DNA of 64,000 nucleotides from Escherichia coli (GTDB taxonomy: Bacteria > Pseudomonadota > Gammaproteobacteria > Enterobacterales > Enterobacteriaceae). Positions 3,043-55,893 of this stretch are shown here, piece by piece (positions within the stretch are counted from its first letter, which is position 1; each line of letters starts with the position of its first letter). The translations under genes were made by a program, and so were the position numbers. The DNA lies in the NCBI RefSeq assembly GCF_001677475.2, contig NZ_CP015229.1; one strand, written 5' to 3'. The notes beneath the pieces were generated by a model. That model made no database searches and was not told the origin of the DNA. It saw only the letters and a program-made list of their open reading frames with translations.

Positions 3043-3132
3043 TTGCCTCCCCCCCGTTGATGGGTAAAATAGCCGCAATTTTTCGTTTTCAACAAGCGCG
3101 GCGCGATGCCGCTTACTCAAGAAGAAAGAATT

Positions 3133-3207
3133 ATGACGTTGTCTCCTTATTTGCAAGAGGTGGCGAAGCGCCGCACTTTTGCCATTATTTCTCACCCCAA
3201 TAATTAA
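3133..3207 (+). pseudogene. prfC: Displaced 5' end of prfC (first ~21 codons) left at attL, running into phage DNA to a stop
   Basis: ATG at 3133 encodes [22 protein letters not shown] then diverges (NN*) after the att core; the full prfC is at 54307. Confidence 0.8.
3184..3197. other. attL core (ATTATTTCTCACCC), left prophage junction
   Basis: Identical 14-bp sequence recurs at 54355..54368 inside the intact prfC 5' end; flanking ~20 bp match with one mismatch. Confidence 0.75.
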
Positions 3208-3361: not shown

Positions 3362-3418
3362 TGTACATATGCTTGTACATAATGTACAAAGCAGCAGAGG
3401 TGTTTTGCGATTTGTACA
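3362..3418. promoter_or_regulatory. Cluster of four TGTACA-containing repeats (TTGTACATA / ATGTACAAA) between attL and int; candidate integrase arm-type sites
   Basis: ctgTACAtatgctTGTACATAATGTACAAAg ... tTGTACAag; the same 9-mers recur near attR (54172..54286). Confidence 0.4.
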
Positions 3419-3427
3419 AGGTGAGTA

Positions 3428-4663
3428 ATGGCGCTGTCTGATGCGTGGTTGCGTTCAGTCGTTGGAAAGGAACGTGATAAGGTTTTGGTTAAATCCGATC
3501 GTGATGGTCTGTCTGTCAGAGTATCACCGAAAGGTCGCGTAGTGTTCCAATATCGTTATCAATGGGCAGGGAAAGGTGAGCGCCTTGATATCGGAACTTA
3601 CCCGGCAACTGGATTAAAAGAGGCCAGAGAAGAAGTTATCCGTCTCCGTGGTGAACTCGAGTCAAACCGCAATCCACGATTAGTCAAGCAGGCTGAAAAA
3701 CGAAAAGCTACTGAAGCCATGACGGTAGAGTCTGTGATCCGTGCCTGGTATGAAGCATATTGTGTAAAAAATAAAAAAGGTTCTGAACAGATACTCCGCT
3801 CGTTTGAGCTGCACCTGTTCTCTAAAATCGGGAATATCCCTCACGATGCAGCTACATTGCATGATTGGTTAGAAGTCCTGGAGCCTCTTAGCACCAAGAC
3901 TCCAGCAATAGTAGACCGATTGCTAATTAACGCAAAGCAGGCTCATGTCTGGGCGTATAAGAGAAAGCTCATTGAAACTCGCCCACTGTCGGATATCACG
4001 GGTAAAGATATGGATATCCGTAAAGGTCAGAAAAAACGGTTTCTGACACATGATGAAATTAACATCCTTTATGCTGCGATCGATGGTTCTCGAATGGTTC
4101 CTAAATACCGAGCCTTCATTAAACTATTGCTGCATTTTGGTTGCCGTAGTTCAGAGCTAATTACTGCTAGGGTGGATGATTTTGATTTCATAAATAAGGT
4201 ATGGACTGTACCACCAGAACGACATAAGACTGGGGACATAACAGGCGAACCGCTAAAGCGGCCCATTATTGAACCGGTTGAAGAGCTTATAAAATACGTT
4301 ATCTCTATGAACAACGGTTCCGATATGCTTTTTACTAAGGAAGGAAGCAGGGAGCCAGTTGGTCGGACATCATTGCAGTCGCTGCCTTACAATTTAATGC
4401 AGTTCGCATGGCGACGTTTGGGGTATCAATTTCCTCATTGGTCTCTTCATGATTTGAGACGAACAGCACGAACAAACTTTTCTGATCTTACTGCTCCTCA
4501 TATTGCTGAAATAATGCTTGGTCATAAACTGCCAGGTGTATGGCAAGTTTATGATAAGAGCGATTATCTAGAAGAACAGCGTAAAGCTTACTGGGCATGG
4601 TGGGAGAGGGTTGAATCGATCGTTACTTGTACTGACTTAATCTCCAACGGACAGTTTGCGTAG
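3428..4663 (+). CDS. int: Tyrosine integrase, P4-type (N-terminal arm-binding domain plus catalytic domain)
   Basis: 411-aa ORF directly inside attL; C-terminal HDLRRTARTN and catalytic Y region typical of tyrosine recombinases; SD AAGGTGAG before ATG. Confidence 0.9.
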   Translation: MALSDAWLRSVVGKERDKVLVKSDRDGLSVRVSPKGRVVFQYRYQWAGKGERLDIGTYPATGLKEAREEVIRLRGELESNRNPRLVKQAEKRKATEAMTVESVIRAWYEAYCVKNKKGSEQILRSFELHLFSKIGNIPHDAATLHDWLEVLEPLSTKTPAIVDRLLINAKQAHVWAYKRKLIETRPLSDITGKDMDIRKGQKKRFLTHDEINILYAAIDGSRMVPKYRAFIKLLLHFGCRSSELITARVDDFDFINKVWTVPPERHKTGDITGEPLKRPIIEPVEELIKYVISMNNGSDMLFTKEGSREPVGRTSLQSLPYNLMQFAWRRLGYQFPHWSLHDLRRTARTNFSDLTAPHIAEIMLGHKLPGVWQVYDKSDYLEEQRKAYWAWWERVESIVTCTDLISNGQFA

Positions 4664-25987: not shown

Positions 25988-27887
25988 TCTGATGGCTGCC
26001 GTTTCGGTTGCGCTGCAGCCTCTGGTCAGGGTTGTACCGATGACGGCAGTTGAATGGGCTGACCAGTATTATTATCTGCCGAAAGAATCCTCATACGGTG
26101 ACGGCGAATGGAAAACGCTGCCGTTCCAGATCGCCATCATGAACAGTATGGGGAATGATCAGATCCGCACTGTTAATCTGATTAAATCTGCCCGTGTTGG
26201 CTATACAAAGATGTTGCTGGGGGTGGTCGGGTATTTTATTGAGCATAAATCCCGAAACAGTCTGCTTTTTCAGCCCACGGATTCTGCCGCTGAAGATTTT
26301 ATGAAGTCTCACGTGGAGACGACGATTAGGGACGTGCCATGCCTGAAAGACCTTTCCCCATGGCTGGGTCGTAAACATCGTGATAATACCCTCACGCTGA
26401 AACGCTTTTCATCGGGCGTCGGTTTCTGGTGCCTGGGCGGCGCTGCCGCCAAAAACTACCGTGAAAAATCCGTGGATGTGGTCTGCTATGACGAACTTTC
26501 CTCGTTCGAACCGGATGTTGAAAAAGAGGGTTCGCCAACCCTGCTGGGGGATAAACGTATTGAGGGCTCTGTATGGCCAAAATCCATTCGCGGCTCGACG
26601 CCTAAAATCAAAGGCTCCTGCCAGATCGAAAAAGCCGCTAACGAGTCGGCACATTTCATGCGTTTTTATGTGCCCTGTCCGCACTGTGGGGGGGAGCAGT
26701 ATCTGAAATTTGGCGATGATGCCTCGCCTTTCGGTCTTAAGTGGGAGAAGAATAAGCCAGAAAGTGTTTTCTACCTTTGTGAGCATCATGGCTGTGTGAT
26801 CCATCAGTCTGAGCTTGACCAGAGTAACGGGCGGTGGATCTGTGAAAACACGGGCATGTGGACCCGTGACGGCCTGATGTTTTTCAGCGCCCGGGGTGAT
26901 GAAATTCCGCCGCCGCGCTCCATCACTTTCCATATCTGGACGGCGTACAGTCCGTTCACCACCTGGGTACAGATTGTCTATGACTGGCTGGATGCACTGA
27001 AAGATCCCAACGGCCTGAAAACCTTTGTGAACACCACGCTGGGCGAGACCTACGAAGAGGCCGTGGGCGAAAAACTCGATCACCAGGTACTGATGGATAA
27101 GGTTGTGCGTTACACGGCGGCGGTGCCTGCCCGGGTGGTTTATCTGACGGCCGGCATTGACTCGCAGCGAAACCGTTTTGAGATGTATGTCTGGGGATGG
27201 GCTCCGGGAGAGGAAGCCTTTCTGGTGGATAAAATCATCATTATGGGGCGTCCCGATGAGGAAGAGACGCTGTTACGTGTGGATGCGGCGATCAACAAAA
27301 AATACCGCCATGCAGACGGAACCGAAATGACCATTTCCCGTGTCTGCTGGGACATCGGGGGGATCGATGGCGAAATCGTTTATCAGAGGTCAAAAAAACA
27401 CGGTGTTTTCCGGGTGCTGCCGGTAAAAGGCGCATCTGTCTATGGCAAGCCGGTGATCACCATGCCAAAAACCCGCAATCAGCGGGGCGTGTATCTGTGT
27501 GAAGTGGGGACGGACACCGCAAAAGAAATTCTCTATGCCCGTATGAGAGCCGATCCCACGCCTGCGGATGAAGCCACGTCGTATGCCATCCGTTTTCCTG
27601 ATGATCCGGAGATTTTTTCGCAGACAGAGGCGCAGCAACTGGTGGCGGAAGAGCTTGTGGAGAAGTGGGAAAAAGGAAAGATGCGTCTGCTGTGGGATAA
27701 CAAAAAGCGGCGTAACGAAGCGCTGGACTGCCTGGTGTATGCCTACGCGGCATTACGTGTGTCCGTGCAACGTTGGCAGCTTGATCTGGCTGTACTGGCA
27801 AAATCCCGGGAAGAAGAGACGACCCGGCCAACCCTTAAAGAACTGGCAGCGAAGCTGTCCGGAGGAGTGAATGGTTACAGTCGCTGA
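25959..27887 (+). CDS. A: Terminase large subunit A
   Basis: MNISEQQLNNL... with strong recalled similarity to lambda gpA (Walker A and endonuclease regions). Confidence 0.92.
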   Translation: MNISEQQLNNLMAAVSVALQPLVRVVPMTAVEWADQYYYLPKESSYGDGEWKTLPFQIAIMNSMGNDQIRTVNLIKSARVGYTKMLLGVVGYFIEHKSRNSLLFQPTDSAAEDFMKSHVETTIRDVPCLKDLSPWLGRKHRDNTLTLKRFSSGVGFWCLGGAAAKNYREKSVDVVCYDELSSFEPDVEKEGSPTLLGDKRIEGSVWPKSIRGSTPKIKGSCQIEKAANESAHFMRFYVPCPHCGGEQYLKFGDDASPFGLKWEKNKPESVFYLCEHHGCVIHQSELDQSNGRWICENTGMWTRDGLMFFSARGDEIPPPRSITFHIWTAYSPFTTWVQIVYDWLDALKDPNGLKTFVNTTLGETYEEAVGEKLDHQVLMDKVVRYTAAVPARVVYLTAGIDSQRNRFEMYVWGWAPGEEAFLVDKIIIMGRPDEEETLLRVDAAINKKYRHADGTEMTISRVCWDIGGIDGEIVYQRSKKHGVFRVLPVKGASVYGKPVITMPKTRNQRGVYLCEVGTDTAKEILYARMRADPTPADEATSYAIRFPDDPEIFSQTEAQQLVAEELVEKWEKGKMRLLWDNKKRRNEALDCLVYAYAALRVSVQRWQLDLAVLAKSREEETTRPTLKELAAKLSGGVNGYSR

Positions 27888-44781: not shown

Positions 44782-46773
44782 CCGGGCGATGTCATTGAAA
44801 TCTGCGATGATGACTATGCCGGTATCAGCACCGGTGGTCGCGTGCTGGCGGTGAACAGCCAGACCCGGACGCTGACGCTCGACCGTGAAATCACGCTGCC
44901 ATCCTCCGGTACCACGCTGATAAGCCTGGTTGACGGAAGTGGTAATCCGGTCAGCGTGGAGGTTCAGTCCGTCACCGACGGACTTAAGGTGAAAGTGAAC
45001 CGGGTTCCTGACGGCGTTGCAGAATACAGCGTGTGGGGGCTGAAGCTGCCGACGCTGCGCCAGCGCCTGTTCCGCTGCGTGAGTATCCGTGAGAACGACG
45101 ACGGCACGTATGCCATCACTGCCGTGCAGCATGTACCGGAAAAAGAAGCCATCGTGGATAACGGGGCGCACTTTGACGGCGACCAGAGCGGCACGGTGAA
45201 TGGTGTCACGCCGCCAGCGGTGCAGCACCTGACCGCCGAAGTCACCGCAGACAGCGGGGAATATCAGGTGCTGGCGCGCTGGGACACGCCGAAGGTGGTG
45301 AAGGGCGTGAGCTTCCTGCTCCGTCTGACCGTAACAGCGGATGACGGCAGTGAGCGGCTGGTCAGCACGGCCCGGACGACGGAAACCACATACCGCTTCA
45401 CGCAACTGGCGCTGGGGAACTACAGGCTGACAGTCCGGGCGGTAAATGCGTGGGGGCAGCAGGGCGATCCGGCGTCGGTATCGTTCCGGATTGCCGCACC
45501 GGCAGCACCGTCGAGGATTGAGCTGACGCCGGGCTATTTTCAGATAACCGCCACGCCGCATCTTGCCGTTTATGACCCGACGGTACAGTTTGAGTTCTGG
45601 TTCTCGGAAAAGCGGATTACCGATATCAGGCAGGTTGAAACCACAGCCCGCTATCTTGGTACGGCGCTGTACTGGATAGCCGCCAGTATCAATATCAAAC
45701 CGGGCCATGATTATTACTTTTATATCCGCAGTGTGAACACCGTTGGCAAATCGGCATTCGTGGAGGGCGTCGGTCGGGCGAGCGATGATGCGGAAGGTTA
45801 CCTGGATTTTTTCAAAGGCAAGATAACCGAATCCCATCTCGGTAAAGAGCTGCTGGAAAAAGTTGATTTGACGGAGGATAACGCCAGCAGACTGGATGAG
45901 TTTTCGAAAGAGTGGAAGGACGCTAACGATAAATGGAATGCCATGTGGGGCGTCAAAATTGAGCAGACCAAAGACGGCAAACATTATGTCGCGGGTATTG
46001 GCCTCAGCATGGAGGACACGGAGGAAGGCAAGCTGAGCCAGTTTCTGGTTGCCGCTAACCGTATCGCGTTTATTGACCCGGCAAACGGGAATGAAACGCC
46101 GATGTTTGTGGCGCAGGGCAACCAGATATTCATGAACGACGTGTTCCTGAAGCGCCTGACAGCCCCCACCATTACCAGCGGTGGCAGTCCTCCGGTATTT
46201 TCCCTGACATCAGACGGAAAGCTGACCGCTAAAAATGCGGATATCAGTGGTAGTGTGAATGCGAACTCAGGAACGCTCAACAATGTCACGATTAACCAGA
46301 ACTGTACGATTAAGGGCATGCTGGAGGCGACTCAGGTCAGAGGTGACTTCGTTAAAGCTGTATCCAAATCATTTCCGAAACAGGCTGGTACGTGGGGTAA
46401 CACGGAAACACCAAACGGGACGGTTACAGTCACCATCAGCGATGATCATAACTTTGACCGTCAAATCATTATTCCGCCCATTATCTTTAACGGAATAGCG
46501 TATAGCGATCCGGGAAGTGGTAATAACCCGGGAGGTACAAGATACACGGGTTATGGTTTTGAAGTTCGCAAAAACGGTGTATTAATCGCATCCAGAGAAA
46601 CTAAAGGGGCCATTCCCGGTAGCTACAGTGCGGTTATTGATATGCCGAGTGGCAGGGGAAGCGTCACTCTGGAGTTTAAGGTTTTCCATAAAGGCAATCA
46701 GTGGGCAGGTAATATCACCGACTGTACGGTGATTGTGACCAAAAAAGCCGCTTCCGGCATCAGTATTCGTTGA
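44782..46773 (+). pseudogene. J: Tail tip/host-specificity protein J, 3' fragment
   Basis: Resumes in frame ([29 protein letters not shown]...) exactly as lambda J continues after ...HVPG. Confidence 0.9.
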
Positions 46774-46794
46774 AATTGTTATAACCCATATAAG

Positions 46795-46820
46795 GGCACC
46801 AGAAATGGTGCCTTTTTTAT
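46795..46820 (+). terminator. Rho-independent terminator after J
   Basis: GGCACC-AGAAAT-GGTGCC followed by TTTTTTATT. Confidence 0.7.
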
Positions 46821-46842
46821 TGCAGAAAAGCGAGAGGTAATT

Positions 46843-47442
46843 ATGCGTAAACTTTATGCCGCCATTTTGTCCGCAGCCATTTGTCTGGCCGTATCCGGTG
46901 CGCTTGCATGGGCATCTGAACATCAGTCCACGCTGAGCGCGGGGTATCTTCATGCCCGGACCAACGTTCCCGGCAGTGATGATCTGAACGGGATTAACGT
47001 GAAATACCGTTATGAGTTTACGGATACGCTGGGGCTGGTGACGTCATTCAGCTATGCAGGAGACAAGAATCGCCAGCTGACCCGTTACAGCGATACCCGC
47101 TGGCATGAAGATTCCGTGCGTAACCGCTGGTTCAGCGTGATGGCGGGGCCGTCTGTGCGCGTGAATGAATGGTTCAGCGCGTATGCGATGGCGGGTATGG
47201 CTTACAGCCGTGTTTCGACTTTTTCCGGGGATTACCTTCGCGTAACTGACAACAAGGGGAAAACGCACGATGTGCTGACCGGAAGTGATGACGGTCGCCA
47301 CAGCAACACGTCTCTGGCGTGGGGGGCTGGCGTGCAGTTTAACCCGACCGAATCCGTGGCCATTGATATTGCTTATGAAGGTTCTGGCAGTGGTGACTGG
47401 CGCACTGACGGTTTCATCGTGGGTGTCGGTTATAAATTCTGA
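46843..47442 (+). CDS. lom: Lom-like outer-membrane beta-barrel protein (Ail/Lom family)
   Basis: 199-aa ORF with signal peptide and C-terminal ...GVGYKF; position J-lom-stf as in lambda. Confidence 0.85.
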   Translation: MRKLYAAILSAAICLAVSGALAWASEHQSTLSAGYLHARTNVPGSDDLNGINVKYRYEFTDTLGLVTSFSYAGDKNRQLTRYSDTRWHEDSVRNRWFSVMAGPSVRVNEWFSAYAMAGMAYSRVSTFSGDYLRVTDNKGKTHDVLTGSDDGRHSNTSLAWGAGVQFNPTESVAIDIAYEGSGSGDWRTDGFIVGVGYKF

Positions 47443-47467
47443 TTAGCCAGGTAACACAGTGTTATGA

Positions 47468-47496
47468 CAGCCCGCCGGTTCAGGTGGGCTTTTTTG
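47468..47496 (+). terminator. Terminator-like hairpin after lom
   Basis: AGCCCGCC...GGTGGGCT followed by TTTTTTG. Confidence 0.45.
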
Positions 47497-47506
47497 TGGG
47501 GGGAAT

Positions 47507-50446
47507 ATGGCAGTAAAGATTTCAGGTGTACTGAAAGACGGCACAGGAAAACCGGTACAGAACTGCACAATCCAGCTGAAAGCAAAACGTAACAGCACCA
47601 CGGTGGTGGTGAACACGCTGGCCTCAGAAAATCCGGATGAAGCCGGGCGTTATAGCATGGACGTTGAGTACGGTCAGTACAGCGTTATTCTGTTGGTGGA
47701 AGGATGCCCGCCGTCACATGCCGGGACCATCACCGTGTATGAAGATTCCCGACCCGGTACGCTGAATGATTTTCTCGGTGCCATGACGGAGGATGATGCC
47801 CGTCCGGAGGCTCTGCGCCGTTTTGAACTGATGGTGGAAGAGGTGGCGCGTAACGCGTCCGCGGTGGCACAGAACACGGCAGCCGCGAAGAAGTCAGCCG
47901 GCGATGCCGGCACATCTGCCCGTGAGGCGGCAACCCATGCGACTGATGCTGCAGATTCAGCACGTGCAGCCAGCACGTCAGCCGGACAGGCCGCGACGTC
48001 AGCTCAGGAGGCTTTTTCCTGCGCAGGAACGGCATCAGCAAAAGCCTCTGAGGCATCAAAAAGTGCTGCCGCTGCAGAGTCCTCAAAAAGCGCGGCGGCC
48101 ACCAGTGCCGGTGCCGCGAAAACGTCTGAAACGAATGCTGCAGCGTCACAACAATCAGCAGCCACTTCTGCATCCACCGCGACCACGAAAGCGTCAGAAG
48201 CTGCCACCTCAGCCCGGGATGCGTCGGCTTCAAAAGAGGCGGCAAAATCATCAGAAACGAGCGCAGCCTCGAGCGCAAGTAGTTCCGCTTCCTCGGCAAC
48301 AGCGGCAGCAAATTCTGCGAAGGCGGCAAAAACGTCCGAGACGAACGCCAGGTCTTCTGAAACGGCAGCGGAACAGAGCGCCTCAGCTGCGGCAGGTTCA
48401 GAAACTACCGCTGCATCATCAGCCCGTGAGGCGTCAGTCAAAGCGGAGGAGGCTGCAGCCAGTGCCACTGCCGCCGGAAAATCGGCAGAAAGCGCCGCAT
48501 CATCCGCTTCAACAGCCACAACGAAGGCTGGCGAAGCCACTGAACAGGCCAGCGCAGCAGCGAGGTCAGCTTCCGCAGCGAAGACATCCGAAACGAACGC
48601 GAAAGCGTCGGAAACCAGCGCAGAATCCTCAAAAACGGCTGCCGCATCGTCCGCCAGTTCGGCGGCGTCATCGGCCTCATCGGCGTCTGCTTCAAAAGAT
48701 GAGGCGACCAGACAAGCGTCAGCAGCGAAGGGCAGCGCCACGACGGCATCCACGAAGGCAACAGAGGCTGCTGGCAGTGCGACGGCGGCAGCACAGAGCA
48801 AAAGTACGGCGGAATCCGCGGCAACGCGCGCCGAGACAGCGGCAAAACGGGCAGAGGATATTGCATCCGCCGTGGCGCTTGAGGATGCGAGCACGACGAA
48901 AAAGGGGATAGTACAGCTCAGCAGTGCGACCAACAGCACTTCCGAGTCACAGGCGGCAACGCCAAAGGCAGTAAAAGCAGCCAATGACAATGCTGAGAAA
49001 CGTCTGCAGAAAGATCAGAACGGTGCGGATATCCCTGGCAAAGACACCTTTACGAAAAATATTGGTGCCTGCCGTGCCTTCGGTGGGTCAGTAAGCACAA
49101 CAACAGGAAACTGGACGACTGCACAGTTTATCGAGTGGCTGGATTCTCAGGGAGCATTTAACCATCCATACTGGATGTGCAAGGGTTCCTGGTCTTATGG
49201 CAATAATAAAATCATTACTGATACTGGCTGCGGTAATATTCATCTCGCCGGAGCTGTCATTGAAGTAATGGGGATAAAGTCAGCGATGACGATCCGCATT
49301 ACCACTCCGACTACATCCAGCGGTGGCGGAACAACCAACGCCCAGTTTACCTATATTAATCACGGAACAGATTATTCACCTGGCTGGCGAAGGGACTATA
49401 ACTCCAGAAATAAGCCAACGGCATCAGAGATCGGGGCGCTACCGTCAGGTGGAACAGCAGTATCATCAGTTAATCTGGCTTCAAAAGGTCGGGTAGCCGC
49501 GCTGACAGACAATACGCAGGGGGCAGCAGGTCTTGAGTTATACGAGGTGTATAACAACGGATATCCAACAGCGTATGGAAATATCATTCACCTGAAAGGG
49601 ATGACAGCCGTTGGCGAAGGTGAGTTACTCATCGGCTGGAGTGGTACAAGCGGTGCTCATGCTCCGGCATTTATTCGTTCACGACGGGATACGACCGACG
49701 CAAACTGGTCGCCGTGGGCGCAGCTTTACACCTCGGCTCATCCTCCTGCAGAGTTTTATCCAGTCGGTGCACCAATCCCGTGGCCATCAGATACCGTTCC
49801 GTCTGGCTATGCCCTGATGCAGGGGCAGACTTTTGACAAATCTGCATACCCGAAACTTGCAGCGGCTTATCCGTCAGGCGTTATTCCTGATATGCGTGGC
49901 TGGACGATTAAGGGCAAGCCCGCCAGTGGTCGTGCCGTATTGTCTCAGGAACAGGACGGCATTAAATCGCACACCCACAGCGCCAGCGCATCCAGTACGG
50001 ATTTGGGGACGAAAACCACATCGTCGTTTGATTACGGCACTAAATCCACGAATAACACCGGTGCGCATACCCATAGTTTAAGTGGCAGCACGAATGCGGC
50101 TGGTAATCACAGCCATAGAGATGGCCGTCGATTTAACCCCAGTGTTTTTAAAGATACTTATCAATATGGTTATACAAGCTCAGGTCAAAATACCTGGGGG
50201 GTACAAGGCTCAGTAGGTATGTCTACGGGGTGGTTAGCTAATACCAGTACAGATGGTAATCATAGCCACTCACTGTCCGGTACAGCAGTATCTGCAGGTG
50301 CACACGCGCATACTGTCGGTATTGGTGCTCATACGCACTCCGTTGCGATAGGGTCACATGGACACACCATCACCGTTAACGCTGCTGGTAACGCGGAAAA
50401 CACCGTCAAAAACATCGCATTTAACTATATTGTGAGGCTTGCATGA
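47507..50446 (+). CDS. stf: Side tail fibre protein Stf (Ala/Ser-rich repeats; C-terminal HxH repeats)
   Basis: 979-aa ORF; long low-complexity central region; C-terminus [18 protein letters not shown]...[15 protein letters not shown] typical of lambda-type Stf. Confidence 0.85.
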
Positions 50447-51345
50447 TTACGCTCATTCTTTCTGCACCAGTAACAGAAATGGCTGAAGCATTTAAGCGGG
50501 TATTCGCAAATGCAGATAATGTGAATATTGTCGGAAAGCCATTTGAAACAATCAGGGAATTTGACTGCATGGTAAGTGCGGCAAACAGTTTCGGCCTGAT
50601 GGATGGCGGTGTTGATGCCGCCATTACCGCATTCTTCGGTACTCAGTTACAGTCCCGCGTTCAGAATCATATTCTTCGTGAATATCTCGGCGAGCAGCCT
50701 GTAGGTTCTGCATTTGTTATTGAAACGGGGCATAATCATCATCCCTGGCTGGTACATGCGCCAACAATGCGTGTTCCGCTGACAATTGACGGAACAGACG
50801 CTGTATATAACGCAACCTGGGCCGCTCTGCTTGCCATCTTTCAGCACAATAAACACGCAACGACAGACAGGAAAATAAAAACGGTGGTATTCCCTGCAAT
50901 GGGAGCCGGATGTGGTCAGGTGCCGTTTGAAAGTGTTGCCCGGCAGATGAAGCAGGCATGGGATAACTTTAATAAAAAAACAGAATCAATTAACTGGGAA
51001 TACGCACAATCCCGCCAGTCGGCAGTATTTGGCACATATGCATACTGTCCGGGTAATTCTGTTTGCCGTTATGCGGATACTAAATATATTGGATGCGGCG
51101 ATTATCGGACGTATTGCTCACGTTCCGGGCAGGTCTGTATTAACCCTGAACATCAGGCTGATGATGTACTGATACAACATCAGGCTAATAACCGGTTTCG
51201 CCCTGGTTCGCATATACACCGGATTAATCCAGAAAATCCCGTAGGTAATGTCATCTCTGGCGCACATAGCCACGGAAGTAGCATCGTTATTGGTGCTCAC
51301 ACCCATACGCTCAATAAACAATATTCTGTCTCTGATATTAAGTAG
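50443..51345 (+). CDS. Macro-domain (ADP-ribose binding/hydrolase-like) protein with tail-fibre-like His-repeat C-terminus, inserted between stf and tfa
   Basis: ATGA overlap with stf stop; macro motifs [18 protein letters not shown] and [14 protein letters not shown]; C-terminal [18 protein letters not shown] echoes the Stf C-terminus; stop 8 nt before tfa ATG. Confidence 0.6.
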
Positions 51346-51353
51346 AGGTGAAC

Positions 51354-51929
51354 ATGGATTTCAGAATGAGTGAACAACCACGGACCATAACAATTTATAA
51401 TCTGCTGGCCGGAACTAATGAATTTATTGGTGAAGGTGATGCATATATTCCGCCTCATACAGGTCTGCCAGCAAACAGTACCGATATTGCACCGCCAGAT
51501 ATTCCGGCTGGCTTTGTGGCTGTTTTCAACAGTGATGAGGCATCGTGGCATCTCGTTGAAGACCATCGGGGTAAAACCGTCTATGACGTGGCTTCCGGCG
51601 ACGCGTTATTTATTTCTGAACTTGGCCCATTACCGGAAAATGTCACTTGGTTATCCCCGGAAGGGGAGTTTCAGAAGTGGAACGGCACAGCCTGGGTGAA
51701 GGATACGGAAGCAGAAAAACTGTTCCGGATCCGGGAGGCGGAAGAAACAAAAAACAACCTGATGCAGGTAGCCAGTGAGCATATTGCGCCGCTTCAGGAT
51801 GCTGCAGATCTGGAAATTGCAACGGAGGAAGAAATCTCGTTGCTGGAAGCATGGAAAAAGTATCGGGTATTGCTGAACCGTGTTGATACGTCAACTGCAC
51901 AGGATATTGAATGGCCAGCACTGCCGTAG
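51354..51929 (+). CDS. tfa: Tail fibre assembly protein Tfa
   Basis: [41 protein letters not shown]... matches recalled lambda Tfa; SD GAGGTG upstream. Confidence 0.9.
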
Positions 51930-52026
51930 GGTAAAACATATAAATTCTATAATTAGATGTATCTTTCCATTTACGGCAAGGAAGGGGGCTTGGAAGACGT
52001 AAAGCATCTCACACCGAGATTATTTT

Positions 52027-52617
52027 TTATATGTCAGGTGTCTGAAGTTTTGCTTTGGCTCTTAAAATGGTTTGCCGCGAGGTTTTGAATTCCCGGGCAA
52101 TGGCACTTATACTTACACCTGACTTAATTCGTTCGAATACCACCTGTTTCTGTTCTTCATTTAACACAGGTGGTCGACCAAAACGTTTCCCTGCGCCCCG
52201 GGCTCTTACTATCCCGGAATGAGTGCGTTCAAGTAAAAGGTCTCGTTCAAATTCAGCGACTGCTGAAATTACTTGCATCATCATTTTTCCTGTTGGACTG
52301 GTCAGGTCAATGCCCCCCAATGCTAAGCAATGCACTCTGATACCTGTTTCGGTCAGTTGTTCCACTGTTTTCCTGATATCCATTGCATTACAACCAAGGC
52401 GATCCAGTTTTGTCACAATCAATTGATCACCACATTTCAGGCGAGCAAGCAACCGGTTAAAACCAGGACGCTCACTGGTTGCTGCTGAGCCGCTAATGTG
52501 TTCTTCGATTATTTGCTGAGGTTTGATTTTAAAACCTGCACTTTCGATTTCCCGGCGTTGATTTTCGGGGGTCTGATCCAGCGTTGATATCCGACAGTAA
52601 GCAAAAATTCGAGACAT
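52027..52617 (-). CDS. pin: Serine recombinase / DNA invertase (Pin/Hin/Gin family)
   Basis: 196-aa [18 protein letters not shown]... with catalytic Ser motif and C-terminal HTH; adjacent to tfa as in e14/Rac/Qin. Confidence 0.88.
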
Positions 52618-52996
52618 AGTGAGACTCTATACGAAATTGGTGTACATATCATAATGCATATCCAAAAATTATTTCGCTTATTATTGTACATATTTGTATG
52701 TATACGTTCGAAAATAAACGAATTCGGATGCAGTCCCGTAATTTTGGTGTAACCAAAAATCGATTTTTTGAAAAATGGCTTTAACTCGGTTTGTTTTTCG
52801 AACTCCGGGCGGACTCGAGGAAGACGAATAATAGTGTTGTATGTTATTTTAACCAGATTTTAAGTTGTTTGGTCGTGGAAAAGTGGAGCAAAATGTTGTT
52901 AAAGTGGAAAAATGGTAAAAAAAGTAGGTTGTTGCGGAATAACGTAGTTGTTGATATTTTTTTAATGCATTGAAAAATTATTTTTCAGGGGGGGTA

Positions 52997-53230
52997 TTAC
53001 ACTTTACCATTTAAATTTTGGTTGTCTTTAAGAACTGATATCGCTGTTTGTAATAATTCTTTGTTATCCAGCCATGACTTTTTCTTTATGTTTCCTTCAA
53101 TGTAATCAAGCAATGTTCTGGTATTGATAGGTCTTCCCTGTTTTGCTACTTCCACGACAGCATCTCCCAGGATAATTCTGACTTCAGGAAGCTGCGCAGG
53201 GAACCACTTTAGGGTGTCTTTTGATTTCAT
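52997..53230 (-). CDS. YdfK/YnaE-like cold-shock-induced prophage protein
   Basis: MKSKDTLKWFPAQLPEVRIILGDAVVEVAKQGRPINTRTLLDYIEGNIKK...; matches recalled YdfK; start trimmed to internal Met. Confidence 0.75.
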   Translation of the reverse strand: MKSKDTLKWFPAQLPEVRIILGDAVVEVAKQGRPINTRTLLDYIEGNIKKKSWLDNKELLQTAISVLKDNQNLNGKV

Positions 53231-53298
53231 GAAGATATTCCTTAAAATATTATTGGTTTTCATTGCAATATTGTATGTCTGATTCAGGATATGTTGAC

Positions 53299-53412
53299 TT
53301 ATACATCGGTTTTGTCCGGGTTATTGGATATGCCAATCCCTAATTTTATTAGAGCATGACCAAAAATGCTGAATATGATAAGTAGTGAAGTGATTATCAG
53401 TATGCTGTTCAT
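53299..53412 (-). CDS. Hypothetical 37-aa hydrophobic membrane peptide (type I toxin-like)
   Basis: Hand-translated [37 protein letters not shown]; SD GAGG 4 nt upstream; TTGTCA/TATATA promoter-like elements upstream. Confidence 0.3.
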
Positions 53413-53838
53413 ATAGCCTCGAATTAGTATGGTGTTATATATAATATAGTTGACAATTTTTATCCTGGGTGTTCTTAAAGTTCGTAGATGAACCCTGTAG
53501 TTTCAGGTATACAGGAATGCTTACAGATAGCGGCAAAAGTCAGGAGGTTAATGGCGCAAACTGAAGGGGTAGCTGCGAACTAACTTAGGTAGAGACTCTA
53601 CACGGATTCGGTTTAAAAGTATACATAGATAACAATTTTTATCTGAAGAAGAAAAATATTAAGGTGATATGGTCATATATACTTTAATGCGGAAGAATGA
53701 ATGTGATGAGAGTGCTGTATCTGAATGGTTGAAAAACCGCAGACACGTCGTATGCAAGAACGTGCTGCGGTTGGCTGGTGAACTTCCGATAGTGCGAGTA
53801 TTGAATGATTTCCAGCCGTTACCGATTTTACGTGTTAA

Positions 53839-54087
53839 TTAGTGAACAAACCACTCGTCAGCAGACTCCCAGGTATCTTTCAGAGTTTCCTGAACAAAAG
53901 TTTTAGCTGAATCTTTATCGGCGGTGCGCGTAACAGAAAGGCCATCGTTGCTGGTGGCTTTTACGATCACCTCTACATCGTCATAACGCTTACTGATGCG
54001 TCGAGTTAATTCTTCCTTTAACGCATCCACAGCACCGTTTGGCATTTTAGTCATTTTCTCTTTGGCTATGCAGATCTCAATACGCAT
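53839..54087 (-). CDS. dinI: DinI-family damage-inducible protein
   Basis: 82-aa [13 protein letters not shown]...[11 protein letters not shown] matching the DinI family; two LexA boxes upstream. Confidence 0.85.
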
Positions 54088-54102
54088 AAAAATCCCTCTA
54101 CA

Positions 54103-54146
54103 CTGTGTTTGTATACAGTGTTATTTTTAACTGTATGAATAAACAG
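54103..54146. promoter_or_regulatory. Two tandem LexA boxes (CTGT-N8-ACAG) in the dinI-like promoter
   Basis: CACTGTGTTTGTATACAGTG at 54101..54120 and AACTGTATGAATAAACAGTG at 54129..54148. Confidence 0.75.
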
Positions 54147-54171
54147 TGTCAATAGAACAAAGATTGCTGCA

Positions 54172-54286
54172 TGTACAAATGTTCTTTGGCTACAAATACA
54201 CCTACTGATCATGTTCTGCTATGCTCTGATACCTCCAAAATGTACAATCAGCGGCATGAATTTTTCTTTGTACATATGATTGTACA
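54172..54286. promoter_or_regulatory. TGTACA-containing repeats near attR (ATGTACAAA, TTGTACATA x2); candidate arm-type sites overlapping the phage-borne prfC promoter region
   Basis: Same 9-mers as at 3362..3418 near attL. Confidence 0.4.
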
Positions 54287-54306
54287 TAATCAAAGAGACA
54301 ACAATT

Positions 54307-55893
54307 ATGACAAGCCTTTTGGCCGCAGAGGTAGCGAAAAGAAGAACCTTTGCAATTATTTCTCACCCGGACGCCGGTAAAACAACCATCACCGAGAAGG
54401 TGCTGCTGTTCGGACAGGCCATTCAGACCGCCGGTACAGTAAAAGGCCGTGGCTCTAACCAGCACGCTAAGTCGGACTGGATGGAGATGGAAAAGCAGCG
54501 TGGGATCTCCATTACCACGTCTGTGATGCAGTTTCCGTATCACGACTGCCTGGTTAACCTGCTCGACACCCCGGGGCACGAAGACTTCTCGGAAGATACC
54601 TATCGTACTCTGACGGCGGTGGACTGCTGCCTGATGGTTATCGACGCTGCAAAAGGTGTTGAAGATCGTACCCGCAAGCTGATGGAAGTTACCCGTCTGC
54701 GCGACACGCCGATCCTCACCTTTATGAACAAACTTGACCGTGATATCCGCGACCCGATGGAGCTGCTCGATGAAGTTGAGAACGAGCTGAAAATCGGCTG
54801 TGCACCGATCACCTGGCCGATTGGCTGCGGCAAGCTGTTTAAAGGCGTTTACCACCTTTATAAAGATGAAACCTATCTTTATCAGAGCGGTAAAGGCCAC
54901 ACCATTCAGGAAGTCCGCATTGTTAAAGGGCTGAATAACCCGGATCTCGATGCTGCGGTTGGTGAAGATCTGGCGCAGCAGCTGCGTGACGAACTGGAAC
55001 TGGTGAAAGGCGCGTCTAACGAGTTCGACAAAGAGCTGTTCCTTGCGGGCGAAATCACTCCGGTATTCTTCGGTACTGCGCTGGGTAACTTCGGCGTTGA
55101 TCATATGCTGGATGGCCTGGTGGAGTGGGCCCCTGCGCCGATGCCGCGTCAGACTGATACCCGTACCGTAGAGGCGAGCGAAGACAAATTTACCGGCTTC
55201 GTATTTAAAATTCAGGCCAACATGGACCCGAAACACCGCGACCGCGTGGCGTTTATGCGTGTGGTGTCCGGTAAATATGAAAAAGGCATGAAGCTGCGCC
55301 AGGTGCGTACTGCGAAAGATGTGGTGATCTCCGACGCGCTGACCTTTATGGCGGGTGACCGTTCGCACGTTGAAGAAGCGTATCCTGGCGATATCCTCGG
55401 CCTGCACAACCACGGCACCATTCAGATCGGCGACACCTTTACCCAGGGTGAGATGATGAAGTTCACCGGTATTCCGAACTTCGCGCCAGAACTGTTCCGT
55501 CGTATCCGCCTGAAAGATCCGCTGAAGCAAAAACAGCTGCTTAAAGGGCTGGTACAGCTTTCCGAAGAGGGCGCGGTGCAGGTGTTCCGTCCGATCTCCA
55601 ACAACGATCTGATCGTTGGTGCGGTTGGTGTGCTGCAGTTTGATGTGGTGGTAGCGCGTCTGAAGAGCGAATACAACGTTGAAGCAGTGTATGAGTCAGT
55701 CAACGTTGCCACTGCCCGCTGGGTAGAATGTGCGGACGCGAAGAAATTCGAAGAGTTCAAGCGTAAGAACGAAAGCCAACTGGCGCTTGATGGCGGCGAT
55801 AACCTCGCTTACATCGCTACCAGCATGGTCAATCTGCGCCTGGCGCAGGAACGTTATCCGGACGTTCAGTTCCACCAGACCCGCGAGCATTAA
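54307..55893 (+). CDS. prfC: Peptide chain release factor 3 (RF3), reconstituted with a phage-derived 5' end
   Basis: [27 protein letters not shown]... with GTPase motifs; first ~16 codons come from the prophage side of attR. Confidence 0.92.
54355..54368. other. attR core (ATTATTTCTCACCC) within prfC codons 17-21
   Basis: Exact copy of the 14-bp sequence at 3184..3197. Confidence 0.75.

Follow-up and report, generated by a model that had tools for sequence, protein, structure and literature searches.

The 8-bp word TGTACATA occurs twice upstream of the invertase gene pin and again in both attachment arms of the same prophage, and this sharing is most probably a coincidence (with a rough probability of 0.78) between two unrelated stretches that are alike in composition, the pin copies lying in a mobile promoter region. 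The stretch upstream of pin is a variant allele of the promoter region already described for pinQ and pinR of K-12. Since the pin copies belong to an old and variable promoter region found in many E. coli prophages with other integrases, their match to the arms is most likely fortuitous, which leaves the attractive idea of a connection between integrase and invertase control unsupported. The window, i.e. the whole stretch of 64,000 nucleotides that was analysed, is a segment of the Escherichia coli chromosome with a lambdoid prophage of ~51 kb beside prfC. The features of its pin region are as follows:

52027..52617, minus strand: pin, a PinQ/PinR-type serine invertase of 196 aa, assigned from domains and homology
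52618..52996, minus strand: pin-ydfK intergenic spacer, 379 bp, GC 0.33
52641..52648, plus strand: proximal TGTACATA copy, TATGTACA in the pin sense, 24-31 nt upstream of the pin ATG
52677..52682, minus strand: homologue of the K-12 -10 hexamer, AATAAG here and AATAAT in K-12
52685..52692, plus strand: distal TGTACATA copy, TATGTACA in the pin sense, 68-75 nt upstream of the pin ATG
52697..52704, minus strand: degenerate third copy, TATACATA, which reads TGTACATA in the K-12 and argU alleles

The pin product combines a resolvase catalytic domain (PF00239, 4.6e-36) with a C-terminal HTH_7 domain (PF02796, 3.8e-11), and these domains, together with ~95% DNA identity to the pinQ/pinR loci, place it among the PinQ/PinR-type serine invertases. 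The gene adjoins tail-fibre genes and, like pinR in Rac and pinQ in Qin, is convergent with tfa.

An exact search of the whole window found TGTACATA at 3362, 3374, 52641, 52685, 54269, and 54281, always on the plus strand. This confirms the two copies upstream of pin reported by the sequence-only reading, which had listed the strings GGTGTACATAT (52638-52648) and TTATTGTACATATTTG (52681-52696), as well as its observation that a 9-mer of the attachment arms recurs there (TGTACATAT at 3362, 54269, 52641, and 52685). The six copies compare with 1.19 expected (sd 0.96) from 100 dinucleotide-preserving shuffles, none of which reached six. The word is thus enriched in the window, so that the shared-site idea of the earlier reading is not refuted for want of enrichment, but the excess does not rescue that idea either. 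With one mismatch allowed, the search returned 38 occurrences against 36 expected across the window, and the TGTACATA signal therefore consists of three local clusters.

Within the pin-ydfK spacer, local composition (GC 0.33) predicts only 0.013-0.018 copies, and the probability of finding at least two is ~6e-4. AT-richness alone is therefore insufficient to account for the pair: of the earlier suggestion of an AT-rich coincidence, the coincidence comes nearer to the truth, but not the reason given for it. TGTACATA is a perfectly alternating pyrimidine-purine word, and the bin at 52601-52800 contains the densest long alternating pyrimidine/purine runs of all 200-bp bins in the window. Holding the purine/pyrimidine pattern of the spacer fixed raises the chance of the word ~7-fold, to P = 0.08 for at least one copy and P = 0.009 for at least two. 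Even then, two copies in the spacer are still improbable (P ~0.01). The low probability of a pair marks it as a real local repeat, consistent with an ancestor that had three copies, and for a single ancestral word of this sequence class to equal the arm word is roughly a 1-in-10 event.

Homology places the repeat in a widely distributed module. At the right ends of Qin (pinQ-ydfK-ynfT) and Rac (pinR-ynaE-ynaM), two cryptic prophages of K-12, the DNA shares 92-95% identity with the tfa-pin-ydfK-ynaM segment. A query of 261 bp with the motifs at its centre matched 2,795 genomes in the E. coli set, with 62 at an identity of at least 99%, 43 at 95-99%, 2,552 at 90-95%, and 139 at 80-90%. Alignments and fifteen IMG/VR loci define three alleles at three sites upstream of pin, given here in the pin sense:

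Allele A: TATACATA-caaa-TATGTACA ... TATGTACA; this window and ~105 genomes
Allele B: TGTACATA-caaa-TATGCACA ... TATGAACA; Qin, Rac, and several sequenced lambdoid phages, ~2,550 genomes
Allele C: TGTACATA-caaa-TATGTACA ... TATGTACA; ~139 genomes, with pin proteins ~85% identical

Allele B, the commonest, lacks the motif at both positions noted by the sequence-only reading, with TGCACA at the distal and TGAACA at the proximal one. The argU allele reads TGTACA at the proximal position where Qin and Rac have TGAACA. At the distal position, where Qin and Rac read TGCACA, two type A loci (EC28 and L013) have lost the copy and read TGTGCA. L016 shows a further single loss and reads TGCACA. Allele C contains three copies of the 8-mer within 64 bp, two of which, the distal and the third, form the 8-4-8 palindrome TGTACATAcaaaTATGTACA; it is perfect in the argU-type allele only, and types A and B, L016, and L013 each have a different, uncompensated mismatch. 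The simplest history would start from an ancestor with three copies, which then decayed in a different way from lineage to lineage. In this reconstruction from the alleles, the ancestral form may have been the palindrome TGTACATA-caaa-TATGTACA with another TATGTACA 44 bp downstream, from which lineages would have lost different copies through single substitutions, the window keeping the second and third and losing the first. The region moves with the tfa-pin-ydfK-ynaM module at the right ends of many lambdoid prophages, regardless of their integrase. There is no sign of selection on the TGTACATA words: among 122 aligned columns, 6 of the 24 motif columns are variable vs. 16 of the 98 outside (Fisher p = 0.38).

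The K-12 homologues also provide the promoter context. In genomic SELEX, RpoD holoenzyme bound in the ydfK-pinQ and ynaE-pinR spacers of K-12 (Shimada et al. 2014, PMC3946193); the same work gives TGTACA-16-AATAAT as the predicted sigma-70 promoter of pinQ/pinR and flags H-NS binding for the ydfK-pinQ spacer. Our promoter scan picked up TGTACA-16-AATAAT in the K-12 and argU alleles as well (L001 and L009), and flagged nothing in the window allele at the homologous TATACA-16-AATAAG. The predicted -35 hexamer of K-12 is the TGTACA of its TGTACATA at the third-copy site; the window homologues of the -35 and -10 hexamers are TATACA (52704-52699) and AATAAG (52682-52677), and the published promoter pattern appears degraded in this allele. 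Homology would put the distal copy in the promoter spacer, between the homologues of the -35 and -10 hexamers, and would assign the proximal copy to the predicted 5' leader. A weak alternative pair is formed by TACAAT, which overlaps the distal copy, and the -35 hexamer TTCGAA at an 18-bp spacing. TGTACA agrees with TTGACA at 4 of 6 positions, and TACAAT and CATAAT with TATAAT at 5 of 6, so that such words are to be expected in promoter-like DNA.

Overall, the window region resembles the promoter regions of pinQ and pinR in being homologous DNA (~92% over 261 bp), in the order tfa-pin-ydfK-ynaM at the right end of a prophage, and in having a TGTACA-rich alternating pyrimidine-purine stretch upstream of pin. 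It differs in its TATACA/AATAAG homologues of the -35 and -10 hexamers, and in having TGTACATA where K-12 has TGCACA and TGAACA. We infer a promoter role for the region in the window allele too, and the TGTACATA pair would then lie in the AT-rich, strongly alternating pyrimidine-purine promoter and 5' leader region of an orphan invertase gene. The literature searched gave no mapped transcription start of pin for any allele. A Fur cluster has been published at the ydfK/ynaE start codon (PMC2189734) and not upstream of pin, and Fur regulation of pin was rejected.

The same arrangement could be read as a set of operators, with the ancestral 20-bp palindrome and the copy 44 bp (~four helical turns) downstream serving a host or phage regulator of PinQ/PinR-type invertases, partly decayed in this window. 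Three copies of the 8-mer within 64 bp in type C, the improbability of the pair by chance, and the overlap of the sites with the predicted promoter all speak for this reading, and the 14-fold induction of pinQ/pinR expression by T2 infection shows that some regulation exists (PMC12529663). On the other hand, the copy that has been lost differs between the major lineages, with no compensatory change, the most widespread allele retains one copy only, and the palindrome is not conserved above background among the homologues. No candidate regulator was found, and no E. coli transcription-factor consensus known to us fits: in an informal comparison, those of LexA, CRP, TyrR, RstA, HipB, IHF, and 434-type operators do not convincingly match the motif. 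We therefore regard an operator set as doubtful, with a modest residual chance. The 181-nt pin leader folds better than its shuffles (z = -3.3); an RNA hairpin was nevertheless dropped as an explanation because the palindrome shows no compensatory substitutions across the alleles. A scan of the pin-ydfK spacer for terminators found none. The spacer also contains a perfect short inverted repeat at 52738-52758 (TTTTGGT-tac-ACCAAAA), which reads TTTTGG-gtctca-CCAAAA in Qin and Rac.

The other occurrences of the word lie near the prophage ends, where the relevant features are:

3184..3197, plus strand: att core at attL, ATTATTTCTCACCC, where the displaced 5' fragment of native prfC (ATG at 3134) stops
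3362..3383, plus strand: 22-bp element TGTACATATGCTTGTACATAAT of the P' arm, its end 45 nt before the ATG of int
3428..4663, plus strand: tyrosine integrase with an N-terminal arm DNA-binding domain (PF13356, 2e-16) and PF00589 (6e-17)
54269..54290, plus strand: 22-bp element TGTACATATGATTGTACATAAT of the P arm, its end 17 nt before the prfC start codon supplied by the phage
54355..54368, plus strand: att core at attR, inside the reconstituted prfC

The att copies of TGTACATA had been taken for the crossover core. This was rejected, as an empty site rebuilt on the TGTACATA element matched only one record at a coverage of at least 80%, and that failure led to recognition of the real core inside prfC. 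The core is ATTATTTCTCACCC, the only exact run shared by the two ends (3184-3197 and 54355-54368); 2 nt to the left of this run, the ends differ by C/A. The sequence made by joining 3060-3197 to 54369-54500 occurs without interruption in 4,717 of the 5,426 E. coli genomes, and its identity reaches 100%. The native prfC 5' fragment (ATGACGTTGTCTCCTTATTTGCAAGAG...ATTATTTCTCACCC) was left at attL and stops at 3197; at the other end, the phage supplies the 5' end of prfC from 54307 to the core at 54355-54368, from where native prfC continues. The prophage boundaries are thus corrected, with the crossover within prfC and not at the TGTACATA element, and with the core in this position both 22-bp elements belong to the phage, in the P' and P arms of attP. 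The prophage gives prfC a new promoter, a ribosome-binding site, and its first ~20 codons, so that the N-terminus differs from the native one. Two phage records, L004 (NC_049950.1, 2H10; 26640-26900) and L005 (PV340573.1, both ends), carry bacterial prfC and yjjG-side flanks joined across the prophage ends and appear to be predictions of excised prophages rather than true attP junctions.

The 22-bp element occurs once per arm as TGTACATATG(C/A)TTGTACATAAT, with the single C/A difference between the two copies. Half of the TGTACA hexamers of the window (8 of 16) fall within ~430 bp of attP arms (3362-3418 and 54172-54290), with copies at 3383, 3413, 54172, and 54241 beside those in the 22-bp elements; L037, another prophage at prfC, has TATACA at the counterpart of 54172. 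The paradigm for arm-type sites of tyrosine integrases is lambda Int with its P1, P2, and P'1-P'3 sites. As in that system, the integrase possesses an arm-binding domain, and several TGTACA copies lie on both sides of the core within ~200 bp; the two 22-bp elements (3362 and 54269) are located where such sites are expected. The TGTACA words of the arms are plausible candidates for arm-type integrase sites, although the clustered hexamers could also be promoter elements, or both. The attP arms would thus hold a TGTACA cluster of their own, probably of arm-type integrase sites.

This raises the reading in which TGTACATA is an arm-type integrase word and the copies upstream of pin are additional sites for the integrase, through which pin expression would be tied to the integrase level. 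The arm DNA-binding domain of the integrase, the concentration of half the TGTACA hexamers in the arms, and the exact match between the pin copies and the arms as an 8-mer and a 9-mer all lend it some appeal. Two further points are the resemblance of the 26 nt from 52641 (52641-52666) to the P-arm element (54269-54294), with 20 of 26 positions identical (P ~7e-4 per comparison, ~0.01 after 16 comparisons), and the location at prfC of all type A copies examined, including the prophage-derived phage records 2H10 and PhiR63_1. From type A alone, however, linkage to the integrase is indistinguishable from clonal co-inheritance, and because the two modules are only 1.6 kb apart, allele A at prfC is what physical linkage would lead one to expect.

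Other prophages break the association. A DLP12-like prophage at argU has the type C region, with both TGTACATA copies and the third, and its integrase is unrelated to that of the window (23% identity over 129 aa, E = 0.03); it is the one type C prophage that was traced to its integrase (n = 1). Conversely, EC28 is a prfC prophage that has lost the distal copy, and L037 is a prfC prophage with the same dinI-P arm and without pin. The phage-borne P arm was found in ~703 genomes, vs. 147 in which pin is also adjacent. The pin-upstream motif is thus not co-inherited with a cognate integrase/att module, and the module upstream of pin assorts independently of the Int/att module at prfC, the two recombining freely. 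Unlike arm-type sites of the lambda kind, the copies upstream of pin do not co-vary with the integrase and lie ~1.7 kb from the core (1,663-1,714 bp, counted from 54355 at attR); sites at ~1.66-1.7 kb fall outside any attP architecture known to us. Their positions are also conserved no better than the flanks. Extra integrase sites upstream of pin are thus very unlikely, and the binding site shared by integrase arms and invertase regulation that the sequence-only reading had proposed finds no support: the motif is absent from the Qin/Rac allele, present beside an unrelated integrase at argU, and reduced by one copy in EC28, and the P arm occurs without pin.

More generally, TGTACATA might be the recognition word of a DNA-binding protein at the pin promoter, either the integrase arm domain in the prfC lineage or a regulator of the three-copy ancestor, which we consider improbable. 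If it were true, protein binding at TGTACATA would tie the expression of a PinQ/PinR-type invertase to the state of the prophage or host, and this minority reading would help to explain what switches such invertases on. Enzymes of this type have recently been reported to be inducible by T2 infection and to confer phage resistance (PMC12529663).

The 20/26 identity between 52641-52666 and 54269-54294 (corrected P ~0.01) also allows the proximal copy to be seen as a relic of attP-arm-like sequence or of a secondary attachment site that dates from an earlier recombination event. Set against it are the full-length homology of the region to the pin upstream regions of the Qin, Rac, and argU prophages, the lack of a core-like ATTATTTCTCACCC nearby, and the fall of the similarity to 17/26 in the type C allele, a count made on the alignment. 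A relic of this kind is highly improbable, and a coincidental match within the mobile pin promoter region is still the preferred reading.

The position of the motifs directly upstream of an invertase gene would also suit a pix-like recombination site. In the Hin, Gin, and Cin systems, a crossover site is located just upstream of the invertase gene, and the Din family (Gin/gix, Cin/cix, Hin/hix, and Pin/pix of e14) likewise has a serine invertase gene beside tail-fibre genes. The crossover site of this family is a 26-bp imperfect palindrome with an AAACC-NN-GGTTT centre that occurs as an inverted pair. A gix-like half-site, TATCCAAAAA, lies between the two TGTACATA copies, but it is not conserved in Qin and Rac. 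Searches for the crossover core (AAACCNNGGTTT with up to two mismatches) gave 29 matches against 31 expected, with none near pin, and the e14 pix sequence with up to three mismatches gave two matches against 6.8 expected, neither of them relevant. By the AAACC-NN-GGTTT and pix searches, a Din-family crossover site is absent near pin and in the tail-fibre genes, and an inverted-repeat search over 46000-54400, which includes the tail-fibre region, found no inverted partner. Unlike the Din-family systems, the window thus contains no invertible segment or crossover site (pix/gix), and its pin is convergent with tfa; pin is an orphan invertase gene. PinQ and PinR are reported to act in trans, inverting the P segment of e14 (2025 report, PMC12529663). 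The idea that the motifs form part of a recombination site for the invertase is effectively refuted.

Several other features of the window deserve mention. Two perfect CTGT-N8-ACAG sites, the LexA-box pattern, lie at 54103-54118 and 54131-54146, just upstream of a DinI-like gene (53839-54087, minus strand), and the window as a whole contains five such sites against 0.77 expected. An Rfam scan of 51900-54400 returned only a sub-threshold match to the Shigella sRNA CssrB (24 bits vs. a gathering score of 76, E = 0.039), located at 53632-53769 on the plus strand between ynaM and the DinI-like gene. Finally, a 300-aa open reading frame at 50443-51345 (plus strand) separates the side tail fibre gene from tfa and overlaps the stf stop codon. 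The end of Stf recurs in the His-rich C-terminal stretch of this frame (direct repeat 50316-50337/51284-51305), and its N-terminal part is a macro domain (PF01661, 8e-19), the RefSeq label being simply 'macro domain-containing protein'; a macro domain is unusual within a tail-fibre locus.
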